DNA of 64,000 bases, from assembly GCF_054482595.1 (NCBI RefSeq), contig NZ_JBTHVH010000001.1, one strand, 5' to 3'. A program made the position numbers and the translations under genes. This stretch comes from a plasmid. Shown here piece after piece: positions 15,985 to 52,775 of the stretch. The notes under the pieces were generated by a model, which saw only the letters and a list, made by a program, of their open reading frames with translations, was not told the origin of the DNA and made no database searches. The number at the start of each line of letters is the position of its first letter. The first letter of the stretch is position 1.

Positions 15985-16240
15985 CCACTGCTTGATGAGA
16001 ACCGCGCAAATGTTGACTATGCGCGATGTGACTACAGTCAAAAGTTGACTGTAGTCGATTTAACTCCACCAAAGATCGACTATGTAAGATATTGTCGGGA
16101 GAAACGTTGACTATACGCGATGAAATGCCCCTAAAAGCCATCTCAATAGCGACTTGCAGAATATTGACGCCAGCAAAAATCCACCAGCGTCAACGAATGT
16201 CGCCTATAGTCAACTTCTCGCTATCGCATATAGTCAATAT
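15985..16240. repeat. incA: incA-like iteron array downstream of repA
   Basis: Multiple copies of the core (C/T)(A/G)TAGTCAA(C/T) in both orientations. Confidence 0.65.
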
Positions 16241-17124
16241 TATGGATTGCGCTTATGGATCTGGAAGCCGATTTTCCTGCCGTTTTTTATCTCTGAAAAT
16301 TTAAGATATTCAATAGCTTCCAAATCTTTCATGGCTTTTCTGATAACGCTATTTTGCACGCTAACGGATGATTTGAGATTAAGCCTCGCTCTAAGGCGCT
16401 CAATGCTGACAGGTGCCGGGTTGGCGGGTAGAGCCTCAAAGAATGTATACAGTACCTTGGCCGTCTCTTTGCGCCCTAGTTTATCCAGCATCTTCAGCTT
16501 CAGGATTCGCTTATAGTCAACATAGTAAAGTTCAGATAGCTGTTTCTGCGGCTGGATCTCGATAACATCAAGCTCGGTATTCAGGCTGCTATATGCCAAC
16601 AAGTTGACGTTAATGTTATTGAGATGACCTTTTGCCGCCGGGAAGCGGAATTTGACAACTGTCTGCTGAATGCGTGTCAGAGAGTCATCAATACTTTTAC
16701 GGAACGCCTTTGAAAGGCGCTTACGTGGATAGCCGCATCGATCGGCAAACTCGGAGAATGGCAGGGTGATTATGCCGTCATCATCAGGTGCGTAGTCAAA
16801 CAACGCGGAGGTTATGCCCACCCACACCTTAAAATCAGTATCCATATCCAGGCGTGGACCATGAATTTCAATTCCCTCATAGCCTTCCTGCTCAACAATT
16901 TTGAGGCTTGATAGTTCTTCAGTTGCGTTCGTTGTGTTTGTTGTAACTGACGATCCGCGACGTAGCGCCACATTGGTAGATTTTAAGGTTGGCACAAACA
17001 CACCTAAGCGCAACAAAGCGATGGGTTGTATAGTGCTGTTGTTATTGGGCTTCAGGCTGTGGATTTCTCCTGTATTTCCTGCAACTTCTTCAACGCTAAG
17101 GAAGCCTTTACTTTCTTCCGGCAT
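16240..17124 (-). CDS. repA: plasmid replication initiator RepA (iteron-binding), divergent from P1 RepA
   Basis: Flanked by iteron arrays; preferred ATG at 17124 with GGAG Shine-Dalgarno (track start 17160); blocks such as GPRLDMDTDFK and PLALLRLGVFVP resemble P1 RepA. Confidence 0.75.
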   Translation of the reverse strand: MPEESKGFLSVEEVAGNTGEIHSLKPNNNSTIQPIALLRLGVFVPTLKSTNVALRRGSSVTTNTTNATEELSSLKIVEQEGYEGIEIHGPRLDMDTDFKVWVGITSALFDYAPDDDGIITLPFSEFADRCGYPRKRLSKAFRKSIDDSLTRIQQTVVKFRFPAAKGHLNNINVNLLAYSSLNTELDVIEIQPQKQLSELYYVDYKRILKLKMLDKLGRKETAKVLYTFFEALPANPAPVSIERLRARLNLKSSVSVQNSVIRKAMKDLEAIEYLKFSEIKNGRKIGFQIHKRNP

Positions 17125-17164
17125 CACGGTTTCTCCATGTGTGGCGCGGCCTGACGTCAATTTG

Positions 17165-17440
17165 GATGGCTGTTATCAACAGCTGTGAATATTCAGACTC
17201 TAAAATCGCTTACAGTCAATGTTTCTGTCGCGTATAGTCAACAATAAATCGCGTGCAGTCAACAATAAATCGTGCACAGTCAACATAAAATCGCGTATAG
17301 TCAATGTTGATCCCATTTCAGGCCAGTAATGACGCGGCTTACAGCGATCCGGGATCTTCTTTGGATCTTCCTAGGTTCTCTTTAGGATCTGTTTATTGGA
17401 TCTATGCTGTGGATAAGTTGAATAAACCGGCCAACAAAGC
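17165..17440. other. oriR-like plasmid origin: five direct iterons, five GATC-containing heptamers, DnaA box
   Basis: Five repeats of AAATCG(C/T)G(T/C)A(T/C)AGTCAA 17195-17310; GATC sites 17345-17395; TGTGGATAA at 17411-17419. Confidence 0.7.
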
Positions 17441-20027: not shown

Positions 20028-20925
20028 GCACTGGAAAAACATTACTATTTATAAACTTTCTCGTGAGGCGGATCTGACCGACTTAGAAGATAAAAAGAAA
20101 ATGATCCTTTTCACACCATGCGGTAGTCAGGATATGGCCAAGTTCGGTTTTGTATCTCCATTTGGTGATAATTCCGAAGTTATCGCTATGCATGGAAATG
20201 GTTTTATCCTTGTTGAAGCAAAGCGCGAAACAAAAATTCTTCCCCCGCCGGTTATCCAGCGAGCTATTCAAGAAAAAATTGAAAAACTTGAGCAAGAACA
20301 AGCGCGTAAACTGAAGAAAACAGAGAAGGACTCCCTGAAAGACGAAGTTCTGCATTCTCTTCTGCCACGGGCTTTTTCAAAGTTTTCTGTTATCCAGGCG
20401 ATCTACGACGGTTCAACTAAACGTATCTATATCAATGCCAGCGCGCGGCAGGCAGAGGATATGCTCGCGCTTATGCGTAAGTCTCTGGGTTCTCTTCCTG
20501 TTGTTCCCCTGAGTGTTGAAAATCCCATTGAATTAACGCTGACCGACTGGGTACGTGATGGTAGTGCTCCACAGGGATTTCAAATGGGGGATGCGGCAGA
20601 ACTTAAGGCAGTGCTTGAGGATGGCGGTATTGCCCGAGTGAAAAAGCAGGATTTGGGAAGCGATGAAATTTCCACACACCTGGAAGCTGGCAAGCTCGTT
20701 ACTAAGTTGGCACTCGACTGGCAGAACCGCATTAAATTTACACTGGACCATAACTTCAGCCTTACCAGCGTCAAATTTGCGGATGAATTGCTTGAGCAGA
20801 ACTCTGATATTGATAGTGAAGATGTTGCGCAGCGACTGGACGCAGATTTCTTCCTGTTGACCAGTGAAATTTCGTGCCTGGTTGATGCTCTGGTAAATGC
20901 CCTTGGTGGAGAGGCTAAGCAGTGA
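20020..20925 (+). CDS. hrdC: RdgC-like recombination-associated protein
   Basis: 302 aa starting [16 protein letters not shown], resembling the RdgC N-terminus. Confidence 0.7.
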
Positions 20926-23186
20926 AAGAGCTGTGCTATGGATCTGTTTGCAGTGGAATTGAAGCCGCGAGTATTGCCTGGGAACCGTTGGGTATGCGTC
21001 CGGCGTGGTTTGCTGAAATCGAGCCTTTTCCATCTGCCGTTCTTGCGCACCGCTGGCCCCATGTCGCCAACCTTGGCGACATGACAAAACTTGCCAAAAA
21101 AGTCCTGGCTGAGGAAATCGAATCCCCTGATGTGCTCGTCGGGGGTACGCCTTGTCAGGCATTCAGTATCGCGGGCTTACGTGGTGGGCTTGATGATGAA
21201 CGCGGCGCGCTAACTTTGAAGTATGTGGAGCTTGCAAATGCAATTGACGACAAACGGTCTGAGTCCTTCCTCAAACCGACAGTTATCGTCTGGGAAAATG
21301 TCCCAGGAGTCCTGTCATCGGCAGATAACGCCTTCGGATGTTTCCTTGCCGGATTGGCTGGAGAAGATGCGCCATTCGAACCAGGTGATCGACCTGAATC
21401 AGGAAAAAGTAACTCGTTCTGGCGGTGGGATGTCAAAACCGGTTGCCATGCTCCAAAGTGGCCGCAGTGTGGTTGTATTTATGGACCGCAGCGAAAGGTG
21501 GCCTGGAGAATCCTTGATGCCCAATACTTCGGAGTGGCACAACGACGCCGACGCGTGTTTGTTGTCGCAAGTGCTCGAACAGACCTCGATCCCGCAACGG
21601 TACTTTTTGAGTTCGAAGGCGTGCGCCGGAATATTGCGCCGAGCCGAAAAAAGAAGGAAATCGCTTCCGCCATTATTGCAAATGGCGCTGCAATCAGTGG
21701 CGAAAGCCTAAATCCATGCCTACACGCTGACATGCCACCCGGTATGAAATCGACGAAAGCCGTAAACGCTTTCAGGATGGCAGCATTTGGGGAATATATT
21801 GACGATGAAACCGCATCGACAGTAAAGGCAAGAGATTTTAAAGATGCCACTGACCTTGCCGTTTTTAGCAGCACAGGAGCAGGTTTTTGGTCAGAAGGGC
21901 ATGGTACATTGCGGGCACGTGAGCAAGAAAGCCATGAGCATCTTGTTACATTGGCTTTTCCTGAGCGTATGAGCGGTACACAACATGCTGCAACTAAGAA
22001 TACTTCACCATCTCTAATGGCTAAAAATCCAACAGCTGTTTGCTATGAAGTAAGAAACGCAGAAGTAGCTGTCCGCCGTCTTACCCCTGTCGAATGTGAA
22101 AGGCTGCAAGGTTTTCCTGATGGGCATACGTTGATCCCGACGGAAAAGCGTAAAAAAGTTAATTCAGATGAACTGGCATATCTTCGCAATCACTATCCAG
22201 ATTTAAGCGAAGAAGAGGCCGCGATGCTTGCAGCTGACGGACCGCGTTACAAAGCGATCGGCAATAGTATGGCAATACCAGTAATGCGCTGGATTGGCGA
22301 TCGGATTACTAAGGCCGTATGTCGGCAGAAAGAAGGAAGTGAAACAAAAGAGCGAAAAGTTAAACCAGCGGCAGAATTCGAACGGTCCATATTCAAATGG
22401 GCTGGTGGAAAATTTGGTGTTCTGGAACAAATCTTTCGCTATTTGCCAGAAGGGAAGCGCCTGATTGAACCTTTCGTTGGTGGCGGAGCTGTCTTCATGA
22501 ATGCCGGATACCAGGAAAATCTGCTAAATGATGTGAATGCTGACCTGATTAACTTTTACAAGACTCTGCAACGCGAGGCGAATTCACTTATCACTCTGGC
22601 ACATCGTTTCTTCCAGGACTACAACACACAGGAAGGATACCTGGCAGTACGGAATGCGTTTAACAAACAAGTCTATGATGATTTACATCGCGCAGCGGCG
22701 TTTTTGTTCCTGAACCGACATTGTTTTAACGGATTGACGCGTTACAACCAGGCCGGTGAGTTCAATGTCGGTTATGGGAAGTATAAAACTCCGTATTTCC
22801 CATTACAGGAGATGGAAGCCTTCCTCGGTGCGGAAGGGCGGTCTGAGTTTGTATGCGGTGATTTTGCAGCGGTGATTGAAGCTGCCGGAGAAGGAGATGT
22901 TATCTTTTGCGATCCGCCGTATGAACCGCTTCCAAATACAGAGGGATTCACGAACTATTCCGGTCATGACTTTAAGTTTGAAGAGCAAAAACGCCTGGTG
23001 TCTCTGTTGACGGATGCTCATCGTCGAGGTGCAAAGGTTCTCATTACTAACAGTGGCGCGCCAAACATCAGAGAGCTTTATCATGACAGTGGCTTCAGAG
23101 TGGAACCTCTTTTTGCCAGACGTTCTGTGTCTTGTAAGGGGGACACTCGAGGTGTAGCTCATGACGTTTTGGGCATATTGCTCTAA
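20922..23186 (+). CDS. dmt: fused DNA methyltransferase: N-terminal C5-cytosine MTase-like, C-terminal Dam-like N6-adenine MTase
   Basis: 754 aa; [11 protein letters not shown] and ENVPG motifs, then KWAGGK and DPPY motifs. Confidence 0.8.
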
Positions 23187-47047: not shown

Positions 47048-47275
47048 GTGTTTATGCAATCCATTAACTTCCGTACCGCGCGTGGCAACCTTTCTGAAGT
47101 GCTCAACAATGTTGAAGCCGGGGAAGAGGTTGAAATCACCCGCAGAGGCCGTGAGCCAGCAGTAATTGTCAGCAAGGCTACTTTCGAAGCCTACAAAAAA
47201 GCGGCGCTGGATGCTGAATTTGCATCCCTGTTTGACACCCTGGACTCCACCAACAAGGAACTGGTTAACCGATAA
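47048..47275 (+). CDS. phd: Phd antitoxin
   Basis: 73 aa [39 protein letters not shown]... matches P1 Phd. Confidence 0.9.
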
Positions 47276-47655
47276 TGAGGCATATATCACCGGAAGAACT
47301 TATTGCGCTTCATGATGCGAATATAAACCGCTACGGCGGCCTGCCGGGAATGTCAGATCCGGGTAGGGCAGAGGCCATTATCGGGAGAGTTCAGGCCAGA
47401 GTTGCCTACGAAGAGATCACCGACCTTTTCGAAGTCTCCGCCACCTACCTGGTGGCTACAGCGAGAGGGCATATATTCAATGATGCCAATAAGCGTACCG
47501 CGCTAAACAGCGCGCTGCTATTTCTACGCCGTAACGGGGTGCAGGTATTTGATTCACCTGAACTGGCAGACCTTACTGTAGGCGCTGCGACTGGCGAGAT
47601 ATCTGTATCTTCTGTCGCCGACACGTTACGTAGATTGTATGGTTCTGCGGAGTAG
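47275..47655 (+). CDS. doc: Doc toxin (Fic-fold kinase)
   Basis: 126 aa, start overlaps the phd stop; [11 protein letters not shown]ic-like motif. Confidence 0.9.
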
Positions 47656-48998: not shown

Positions 48999-49451
48999 AT
49001 GTTACTTAACTGGCAGGGACGCCACTTCATGGAAATAAATCACTCACGAATAACATCGTACGAGATTGCGGATTACATGATCCGCACTAAATCTCTTCTA
49101 TCAGCGAAAGAACTCGCAGCAATTCTTGAAAAGGAATACCCGCATCTGGATGTCGATAAGCGCGATGTTTATCTGCGCTTAAAGGCTATCGCTGTGTCTA
49201 AGTATTCGTCTGTTTTGATTGATGACAGTACACGCCCACGTAGATTTCAGATCCACTCTCTGAATCCTGAATTCTTTCGCCGTAGCCGCGCTCCGCGCCG
49301 GTTTGATGAAAAACTCCAGAACGAACTCTATATGACGCAGGACGAAAAGGAACGCCGGGAGCACCAGCCTTGGGTAATGGCGCGTCAACTTTTCAATAAG
49401 GTGGCCCGTCAGCACCGTCATTACGGTAATGCCACATCCGCACGTATCTGA
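48999..49451 (+). CDS. lpa: late promoter activator Lpa-like protein
   Basis: About 150 aa immediately upstream of pacA as in P1. Confidence 0.55.
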   Translation: MLLNWQGRHFMEINHSRITSYEIADYMIRTKSLLSAKELAAILEKEYPHLDVDKRDVYLRLKAIAVSKYSSVLIDDSTRPRRFQIHSLNPEFFRRSRAPRRFDEKLQNELYMTQDEKERREHQPWVMARQLFNKVARQHRHYGNATSARI

Positions 49452-49536
49452 TTGATTGCTTGCCCGTTCCGGGCCTTTTGACATGTGACTTTCGTTACCC
49501 TCGCGTCAAAAAGAGTTTTTACGAAAGGAAGCATAA

Positions 49537-50730
49537 GTGACCTGGGACGATCACAAGAAGAATTTTGCTCGCCTGGCGCGAGATGGTGGTTACACCATCG
49601 CACAGTATGCCGCCGAGTTTAATCTTAACCCTAATACTGCACGTCGTTATCTCCGTGCCTTCAAAGAAGACACCAGGACAGCGGACAGCCGCAAGCCAAA
49701 TAAGCCAGTCAGGAAGCCACTAAAAAGCATGATCATTGATCACTCTAATGATCAACATGCAGGTGATCACATTGCGGCTGAAATAGCGGAAAAACAAAGG
49801 GTTAATGCCGTTGTCAGTGCCGCAGTCGAGAATGCGAAGCGCCAAAATAAGCGCATAAATGATCGTTCTGATGATCATGACGTGATCACCCGCGCCCACC
49901 GGACCTTACGTGATCGCCTGGAACGCGACACCCTGGATGATGATGGTGAACGCTTTGAATTCGAAGCTGGCGATTACCTGATAGATAACGTTGAAGCGCG
50001 GAAGGCCGCTCGCGCTATGTTGCGTCGGTCCGGGGCCGATGTTCTGGAAACCACTCTTCTGGAAAAGTCTCTTTCTCATCTCCTTATGCTGGAGAACGCC
50101 AGGGATACGTGTATTCGTCTGGTGCAGGAAATGCGCGATCAGCAAAAAGACGATGATGAAGGGACTCCGCCTGAATATCGTATCGCGAGCATGCTAAACA
50201 GCTGTTCCGCGCAGATAAGCAGCCTGATCAACACCATTTACAGCATCCGGAATAACTATCGAAAAGAAAGCCGGGAGGCGGAAAAGCACGCTTTATCTAT
50301 GGGGCAAGCTGGCATTGTTAAGCTGGCATACGAACGAAAGCGTGAAAATAACTGGTCAGTGCTGGAAGCAGCTGAATTCATCGAGGCGCATGGCGGAAAA
50401 GTGCCGCCCCTGATGCTGGAGCAAATCAAAGCCGATCTGCGTGCTCCTAAGACCAATACCGATGATGAGGAAAGGCAAACAGCCGTCGGTGGCCCTTCTC
50501 TTGAAGATCTGGACAAAGTTGCGCGAGAACGGGCCGCCAACCGCCGCGCCGATGCCGCATTGTGGATTGAGCAGCGTAGGGAAGAAATCGCCGATATCGT
50601 TGATACAGGCGGTTATGGAGATGTTGATACTGAAGGTGCATCAAACGACCCATGGCTGGAACAAGACCTGGACGAAGACGAGGAGGAAGACGAAGAAGTT
50701 ACCCGCAAGCTATACGGGGATGATGATTAA
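49537..50730 (+). CDS. pacA: terminase small subunit PacA (pac site embedded)
   Basis: 397 aa, GTG start; contains the hexamer cluster; acidic C-terminus. Confidence 0.8.
49725..49900 (+). other. pac: pac packaging site: two clusters of TGATCA/G hexamers carrying Dam GATC sites
   Basis: ATGATCATTGATCACTCTAATGATCAACATGCAGGTGATCAC and TGATCGTTCTGATGATCATGACGTGATCACC. Confidence 0.8.
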
Positions 50731-52214
50731 TGGCCAGAAGTTGCGTAACGGATCCACGTTGGCGCGAGCTGGTGGCGCTATATCGTTATGACTGGATTGC
50801 TGCCGCTGATGTTTTGTTCGGCAAAACACCTACCTGGCAGCAGGATCTGATTATTGAGTCTGTGCAGGAACAGGGTAGCAAGACATCTGTTTCGTCTGGT
50901 CACGGTACCGGGAAATCAGACATGACTTCTATCATGATCATGTTGTTCATAATCATGTATCCCGGTGCCCGCGCCATTATCGTTGCGAACAAAATTCAGC
51001 AGGTAATGACCGGTATATTCAAGTACATCAAGATAAACTGGGCTACTGCCACCAGCCGTTTTCCATGGCTTGCTGATTATTTTGTTCTGACAGAAACCGC
51101 TTTCTATGAGGTTACTGGTAAAGGTGTATGGACTGTAGTACCGAAGGGCTTTCGTCTGGGAAGTGAAGAAGCTCTCGCCGGTGAACACGCAGATCATCTT
51201 CTGTATATTATCGATGAAGCCTCCGGTGTCAGTGATAGAGCTTTCGGTATCATCACCGGTGCTCTTACCGGACAGGATAACCGCATCTTATTACTGTCAC
51301 AGCCTACACGCCCAAGCGGCTATTTCTACGATACTCATCATAAACTGGCCAAGCGTCCTGGTAACCCTGATGGCGTTTATACGGCGATCACGCTTAACAG
51401 TGAGGAATCACCGCTGGTAACGCCAGCATTTATCAAAATGAAGCTGGCGGAGTACGGCGGGCGCGATAACCCTATGTACATGATTAAGGTACGCGGCCTA
51501 TTCCCTAAATCACAGGATGGCTTCCTTCTTGGACGTGATGAGGTTGAACGTGCAACGCGGCGGAAAGTCAAGATTGCCAAAGGATGGGGCTGGCTTGCAT
51601 GTGTGGACGTTGCTGGTGGTACGGGAAGGGATAAGTCCGTTATCAATATCATGATGGTGTCCGGCCAGAGAAATAAACGCCGTGTAATCAACTATCGAAT
51701 GCTGGAATACACAGACGTTACAGAAACGCAGCTTGCCGCCAAAATTTTCGCAGAATGTAATCCTGAGCGATTCCCAAATATCACCATAGCGATAGACGGC
51801 GATGGGCTGGGTAAAGCAACAGCGGATCTGATGTACGAGTATTATGGTATTACCGTACAGCGTATACGCTGGGGTAAAAAGATGCATAGCCGTGAAGATA
51901 AGAGCCTGTACTTTGATAAACGTGCTTATGCCAACGTTCAAGCCGCAGAGGCCGTAAAATCTGGTCGTATGAGACTGGATAAGGGTAATGAAACTATTGA
52001 GGAAGCGTCGAAAATCCCTGTAGGGATTAACTCCGCAGGTCAATGGAAGGTGATGAGTAAGGAGGATATGAAGAAAAAACTCAACCTGCACTCACCAGAC
52101 CATTGGGATACATATTGTTTCGCTATGCTGGCGGATTATGTTCCCCAGGACGAAGTGCTTAGCGTCGAAGACGAAGCGCAGGTTGATGAAGCTCTGGCAT
52201 GGCTTAATGAATGA
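50730..52214 (+). CDS. pacB: terminase large subunit PacB
   Basis: 494 aa; Walker [16 protein letters not shown] Walker B-like. Confidence 0.8.
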
Positions 52215-52553: not shown

Positions 52554-52775
52554 ATGGCTACTATCCCTACCCCAACTCATCCTGAATTTATCTGGCGCTT
52601 TTACTCCTGCCAAAAACGTCACTATCACTTCGTTATTGCACCGACAGAAGATGAGGCACGTTCTCAGCTTCCTGACGCCCCATGTATTTTCTCTGCCCGT
52701 TTTTCCACTGATTCACGCAATTCTCTCAGTTACTGGTGCCTCCCTGTTAACGCTTCTGCTCAGGAGGGACTATGA
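52554..52775 (+). CDS. Icd-like protein, module B
   Basis: 73 aa; paralogue of icd; stop overlaps ant-B start. Confidence 0.6.
   Translation: MATIPTPTHPEFIWRFYSCQKRHYHFVIAPTEDEARSQLPDAPCIFSARFSTDSRNSLSYWCLPVNASAQEGL

Follow-up and report, generated by a model that had tools for sequence, protein, structure and literature searches.

Gene Organization Around the Packaging Locus

Judging by its sequence, the 64,000-nt stretch of plasmid DNA analyzed here (hereafter, the window) is a P1-like (Punavirus) phage-plasmid that is mosaic relative to the P1 reference. Over 24 kb, its closest plasmid is E. coli NZ_CP123256 (98.7% identity, 97% coverage), and 601 plasmid records ranging in length from 39 to 267 kb, most of them from E. 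coli or Salmonella, encode a homolog of its PacA. The gene set neighboring pac is that of P1: doc (47275-47655) and pdcB; lpa (48999-49451, + strand); pacA (49537-50730, + strand) and pacB (50730-52214, + strand); c1 (53923-54774, - strand); an exact 34-bp loxP (55476-55509); and cre (55928-56959).

The packaging genes proper, together with their activator and promoter, are intact and colinear with P1. lpa encodes the late promoter activator (Pfam BPP1_LPA, E = 3e-57, in line with the P1 annotation) that is needed for LPpac, the late promoter that drives pacAB; LPpac, composed of a -22 box and a -10 element, lies at 49483-49501 (+ strand; P1 feature 90475-90493) and is identical to its P1 counterpart. 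pacA begins with a GTG codon and encodes the pacase subunit that recognizes pac, a 397-aa protein with 96.7% amino acid identity to P1 PacA. Directly downstream, pacB encodes a large terminase-type subunit of 494 aa; both proteins have their P1 lengths, and pacB also has its P1 position. Between the end of lpa at 49451 and the start of LPpac at 49483, a GC-rich hairpin is followed by a T run (GCCCGTTCCGGGCCTTTT; 49462-49479); this element looks like an intrinsic terminator, a putative one, which would insulate pacAB from lpa transcription.

The family matches of the two pacase subunits differ in kind. PacB matches PHROG 2 (phrog_2), "terminase large subunit," with E = 3.3e-40, and PacA matches PHROG 1711, "terminase," with E = 2.8e-204. 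The initial annotation called pacA the gene for the terminase small subunit: this name fits PacA by function, but the generic small-subunit family, PHROG 370, is matched only weakly (E = 7e-4). A Pfam search of PacA and PacB matched no terminase family, and the only Pfam hit to PacA was a sub-threshold HTH_23 (E = 4.4e-4); because PHROGs did match, the Pfam blank reflects the coverage of the library and is not evidence against the assignment.

Another component of the packaging system may be encoded at 20922-23186 (+ strand), where a dmt-like gene specifies a 754-aa protein that combines a D12-class (Dam-type) N6-adenine methylase domain (Pfam MethyltransfD12, E = 1.6e-56) with a C5-cytosine methylase domain (Pfam DNA_methylase, E = 2.5e-36). 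This domain combination is that of P1 Dmt, which would supply GATC methylation from the phage itself, and the gene is a phage-borne candidate source of this modification in the present element.

The element departs from P1 in its RepA iterons and in an ant-like gene that lies between pacB and c1. The latter is a 372-aa ORF (52772-53890, + strand) with ORF6N and KilAC/ANT antirepressor domains. In the P1 record, pacB ends at 93206, ~1.6 kb from the end of the record at 94800, and there is thus no room for an ant-sized gene beside c1; an "ant" gene is annotated in the same area in RCS47 and SJ46-type relatives. The ant-like ORF is a mosaic immunity-region variant.

A Cluster of Dam-Site Hexamers Inside pacA

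The pac site lies within the 5' third of pacA. The segment from 49725 to 49900 holds exactly seven TGATCA/G hexamers, which a pattern scan places on the + strand in two groups: a left group of four (HEX4; 49730-49769), with TGATCA at 49730, 49737, 49749, and 49764, and a right group of three (HEX3; 49860-49888), with TGATCG at 49860 and TGATCA at 49872 and 49883. The groups are 90 bp apart, the left one ending at 49769 and the right one starting at 49860, and the seven hexamers together span 159 bp, occupying positions 194-352 of the 1194-bp gene; a segment of ~162 bp (49729-49890) that just contains them is the approximate minimal pac. Hexamer number eight, TGATCG at 49911-49916 (+ strand), follows just beyond the seven-hexamer segment, is likewise enclosed by the pacA ORF, and is also present in P1. 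The initial annotation had counted at least seven TGATCA/G hexamers in two groups about 90 bp apart; its count, position, and spacing are correct (4 + 3), and the eighth hexamer, which lies past 49900, accounts for its wording "seven or more."

Could such an array arise by chance? The 56 TGATCR hexamers on the + strand of the 64,000-nt window correspond to an expectation of 0.17 in any 190 bp, for which the Poisson probability of at least eight is 1.2e-11, or ~8e-7 after multiplication by the 64,000 positions. Sequences simulated from the window with a first-order Markov model (n = 100) contained at most three hexamers in their densest 200 bp; elsewhere in the real window, no 200 bp on either strand has more than three TGATCR hexamers. 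Every hexamer contains a Dam site (GATC), and the context of these sites is skewed: 8/8 GATC sequences in the pac stretch are part of TGATCR, as compared to 56/256 (22%) window-wide. The hexamer cluster is not a product of chance.

On a separate note, the whole window contains 110 TGATCR matches on both strands, against 79.9 +/- 11.6 in shuffles. The pac region contributes 14 of these, and the count without them, 96, is only ~1.4 sd over expectation.

Correspondence With P1 pac

P1 pac has been the textbook methylation-controlled packaging signal since the late 1980s and is the basis of P1/PAC cloning vectors and P1 phagemids. The feature itself is therefore already known, having been characterized in P1 genetically, biochemically, and by sequencing. 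It is a 161-bp part of pacA that contains an IHF site, a central cleavage site, and, in the groups HEX4 and HEX3, seven TGATCA/G repeats that carry Dam sites (PMC10028697); the seven hexanucleotide repeats are cited elsewhere as well (PMC11260489), and both sources have cleavage governed by the methylation of these repeats. PMC9024508, PMC7667829, and PMC6799933 contribute nothing further on the anatomy of pac. The P1 record (AF234172) likewise has the stretch inside pacA, with the IHF site and the primary cleavage points between the hexamer groups.

A gap-free alignment of 241 bp (49700-49940 vs. AF234172; window coordinate = P1 coordinate - 40992) allows the P1 features to be transferred directly. 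The IHF site (AAACAAAGGGTTA) is predicted at 49792-49804 (+ strand; from P1 protein_bind 90784-90796) and the pac cleavage zone at 49812-49821 (from P1 misc_features 90804/05, 90806/07, 90810/11, and 90812/13); by homology, the counterparts of the primary P1 cuts are, on the upper strand, 49814/15 and 49820/21 and, on the lower strand, 49812/13 and 49818/19. Mapping of virion read ends, the check suggested in the initial annotation, already places the P1 termini at the classical pac cuts: PhageTerm analysis of P1 reads yielded two main termini separated by 6 bp, the same ones that Sternberg and Coulby had identified, with higher coverage past pac and ~4 genomes per concatemer (PMC5557969). The 6-bp spacing of these termini is that of the two annotated upper-strand cuts.

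How closely does the present site follow that of P1? Identity to the P1 reference around the site is 98.8% over 601 bp, and other Punavirus phages (P7, RCS47, SJ46, phiW39, and others) are 95.7-99.2% identical over the same 601 bp. The 241-bp alignment contains two differences from P1, 49800 (A to G) and 49869 (A to T), both synonymous and neither in a hexamer. The former is the only difference in the IHF site and falls within the N4 spacer, the unspecified part of the IHF consensus; the cleavage-zone sequence is identical. Across seven P1-group sequences, 13 columns of the 162-bp pac vary, none of them among the 42 hexamer bases. The site is thus like P1 pac in its location inside pacA, in all seven hexamers and the eighth, in their spacing, in the cleavage-zone sequence, in LPpac, and in the adjoining pacB; it is unlike P1 pac in the A-to-G change in the IHF spacer and in that its host element is a mosaic P1-like phage-plasmid, not P1.

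This stretch is almost certainly a P1-type pac, the start site of headful packaging of replicated phage DNA. The proposal that a P1 pac architecture is embedded in pacA, made at the outset from the window alone, is supported by the near-identity to P1, by the P1 annotation, and by the literature.

The Hexamers in Diverged Relatives

What is kept of pac when PacA diverges? The comparison set consists of Cronobacter phage JK004, in which PacA is 70% identical, and three Salmonella D6-like plasmid prophages (CP053320, NZ_CP146848, and NZ_CP077703), which are 83-85% identical to JK004, so that comparisons with the two lineages are not mutually independent. In JK004 and the D6-like plasmids, PacA shares 95% of residues 1-43 with the window, but only 38-40% of the pac-encoded residues 44-124. 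Within the DNA that encodes this variable segment, six hexamers occupy the same gene positions in JK004 and the D6-like plasmids: 201, 213, and 228 in the left group and 324, 336, and 347 in the right. Relative to the window, 37/42 (88%) of the hexamer bases are identical in these sequences, as against 98-106 of the 201 bases around them (~50%; Fisher p = 1e-6 to 8e-6).

JK004 and the D6-like plasmids thus share with the window two groups of GATC hexamers in register, along with the pacA-pacB arrangement and the core of the late promoter (kept in JK004 and a D6-like plasmid). They differ from it in lacking the first hexamer of P1 (gene position 194) and in that the eighth is displaced: their TGATCG lies 15 bp beyond its P1 position, and gene position 365 has a GATC. 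In the D6-like plasmids, position 213 reads CGATCA, with the GATC core kept, whereas JK004 keeps the hexamer; these plasmids also have an extra TGATCA at gene positions 275-280, on the P1 cleavage center, where P1 has TTGTCA. These lineage differences are small variations on one design.

Taken one step further, the comparison allows a tentative model, which we consider possible but would not favor: the core of pac would consist of 3 + 3 hexamers in the above fixed register, with groups 96 bp apart start to start, and the first and eighth hexamers would be lineage-specific extras. In this scheme, the central hexamer of the D6-like plasmids could gate the cut itself by methylation, not only pacase binding, and the pac-encoded part of PacA might be a linker under little constraint as protein, with its sequence set by the DNA signal.

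Two more distant PacA homologs adjoin a terminase gene and have small TGATCA clusters just after the part that encodes the N-terminal HTH. The one from a Xenorhabdus bovienii megaplasmid (L006, 2501-3667) is 32% identical over the aligned part and has hexamers at gene positions 144, 156, and 174 on the left and 332 on the right; the one from Citrobacter freundii pCfr13-1 (L007, 1892-3121) is 29% identical in the C-terminal half only and has hexamers at 174 and 326. These clusters suggest that the GATC-hexamer type of pac extends well beyond Punavirus. A pac inside the gene for the recognition subunit, with one initiation cut followed by headful cuts, is also the arrangement in P22 (gene 3) and SPP1 (gene 1). 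To our knowledge, however, the P22 and SPP1 pac sites are not made of Dam-site repeats and are not gated by adenine methylation, and we know of no detectable membership of PacA in the P22/SPP1 small-terminase families.

A DNA Signal or Something Else?

If the hexamers are part of a coding sequence, could they be a mere by-product of a peptide repeat in PacA (Asp-His, Asp-Gln, Asp-Arg), with no signal at the level of DNA? Five of the seven do share one frame, xxT-GAT-Cxx, and encode Asp followed by His, Gln, or Arg, but the other two are in a different frame and encode Met-Ile and Val-Ile. The T that precedes GATC is kept while the residue varies, through seven different codons: ATT, AAT, CGT, GGT, TGT, AGT, and GAT (for I, N, R, G, C, S, and D, respectively). 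Where Asp precedes a C-initial codon in the pac segment, the codon is GAT in 6/6 cases and never GAC, in each of five sequences from the P1 group, JK004, and the D6-like plasmids; this is so even in JK004, where Asp usage across the gene is 20 GAT to 20 GAC. A repeat maintained for the sake of the protein is also at odds with the surrounding protein segment being only ~39% conserved and with the effect of synonymous recoding of the hexamers, which lowers the titre of wild-type P1 ~9-fold (PMC10028697). The codon evidence excludes the by-product reading, to which we assign practically no probability. Read together with the conserved register of the hexamers in diverged PacA sequences, it argues that selection acts on the DNA motif itself and that the protein segment follows.

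A signal in DNA need not be a packaging signal: GATC clusters could serve mainly in SeqA/Dam-sensitive control of transcription or replication, roles that two dense GATC clusters of this very element would have, one of them oriR-like (17346-17403) and the other a pair upstream of cra/cre. The P1 record, however, annotates no promoter or origin within pac, and the P1 cuts, mapped both biochemically and by sequencing, fall between the two hexamer groups; furthermore, if SeqA-type sequestration did act on hemimethylated pac, it would belong to the methylation gating and would not compete with it as an explanation. A role confined mainly to such control therefore has a vanishingly small chance of being correct. 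A different concern is that the site is a genuine P1-type pac stranded in a defective, plasmid-only relic that no longer packages, and that it is currently unused. Many P1-like plasmids in the databases, among those with a pacA homolog, are mosaic or truncated; 64 kb of a ~95-100 kb genome is in view, so that the rest may carry defects; and the immunity region differs from that of P1. Yet pacA, pacB, lpa, LPpac, dmt, c1, loxP, and cre are all intact, the changes in pac are synonymous and confined to non-hexamer bases, a pattern that neutral decay would not give, and the close relatives SJ46, RCS47, and vB_EcoM-813R1 were deposited as phages. A relic is accordingly improbable, and the sequence points to an element that still has the signals as well as the genes required for initiating packaging at a P1-type pac.

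How Packaging Would Start

In P1, pac is cut only when fully methylated: the unmethylated site is left intact, and the hemimethylated one is bound without being cleaved. After the cut, packaging proceeds toward pacB, c1, and loxP, which is the + direction here. The hexamers are bound by PacA and PacB, and the DNA is bent by IHF and HU; the pacase binds hemimethylated pac, and further methylation allows cleavage (PMC10028697). Given the near-identity of every component to P1, we infer that this element uses pac as P1 does. The PacA/PacB pacase would bind both hexamer groups, with IHF (and HU) bending the ~90-bp core between them, and would introduce staggered cuts over about one helical turn in the middle of the core. 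One-way packaging would start from the cut end and run in the + direction, with later cuts made by headful measurement. Cleavage would depend both on how far pac has been methylated since replication and on the phage Dam-type methylase, which is expressed late; this coupling would limit cutting to roughly one pac per concatemer. The location of loxP, 5.7 kb downstream of pac, is consistent with packaging toward lox: loxP would fall within the terminal redundancy of the first headful.

As a discovery, the site carries little weight, since P1 pac has long been known and is here essentially unchanged; the evidence added here is the comparison with diverged relatives. For annotation, the assignment fixes the origin and direction of packaging in this P1-like phage-plasmid, and phage-plasmids of this kind are vehicles for the spread of resistance genes in E. 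coli and Salmonella. The footprint across lineages provides a clear example in which the demands of a DNA signal on a coding sequence outweigh those of the protein; it also points to the hexamers that are likely indispensable when pac-based delivery vectors are engineered.

Other GATC Clusters and Split pacA Records

The second densest GATC cluster in the window has sites at 17309, 17346, 17353, 17364, 17386, and 17399, followed by a DnaA box (TGTGGATAA) at 17409-17417. It lies upstream of a Rep3-type repA (16240-17160, - strand), and its counterpart in P1 is the oriR segment with five annotated Dam sites and a DnaA box. The part at 17346-17403 was considered as a second pac-like site and rejected because it represents the oriR Dam sites beside a DnaA box. 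The adjacent RepA iterons differ strongly from the incC iterons of P1, and the replicon thus looks like a different incompatibility variant.

Downstream of loxP and upstream of cra/cre, TGATCA is present at 55528 and a close pair (TTGATCATTTGATCAA) at 55589-55602; in P1, one cre promoter is Dam-sensitive. The pair at 55589-55602 was also tried as a second pac-like site and was rejected, given its position between loxP and cra/cre.

In the P1-like phage entries ON470615.2 and ON470617.2, the PacA alignment breaks into three pieces and the annotation splits the gene, either into Pac1 and Pac2 or into PacA and a hypothetical protein. This pattern suggests frameshifts or sequencing errors rather than real disruption of the gene.
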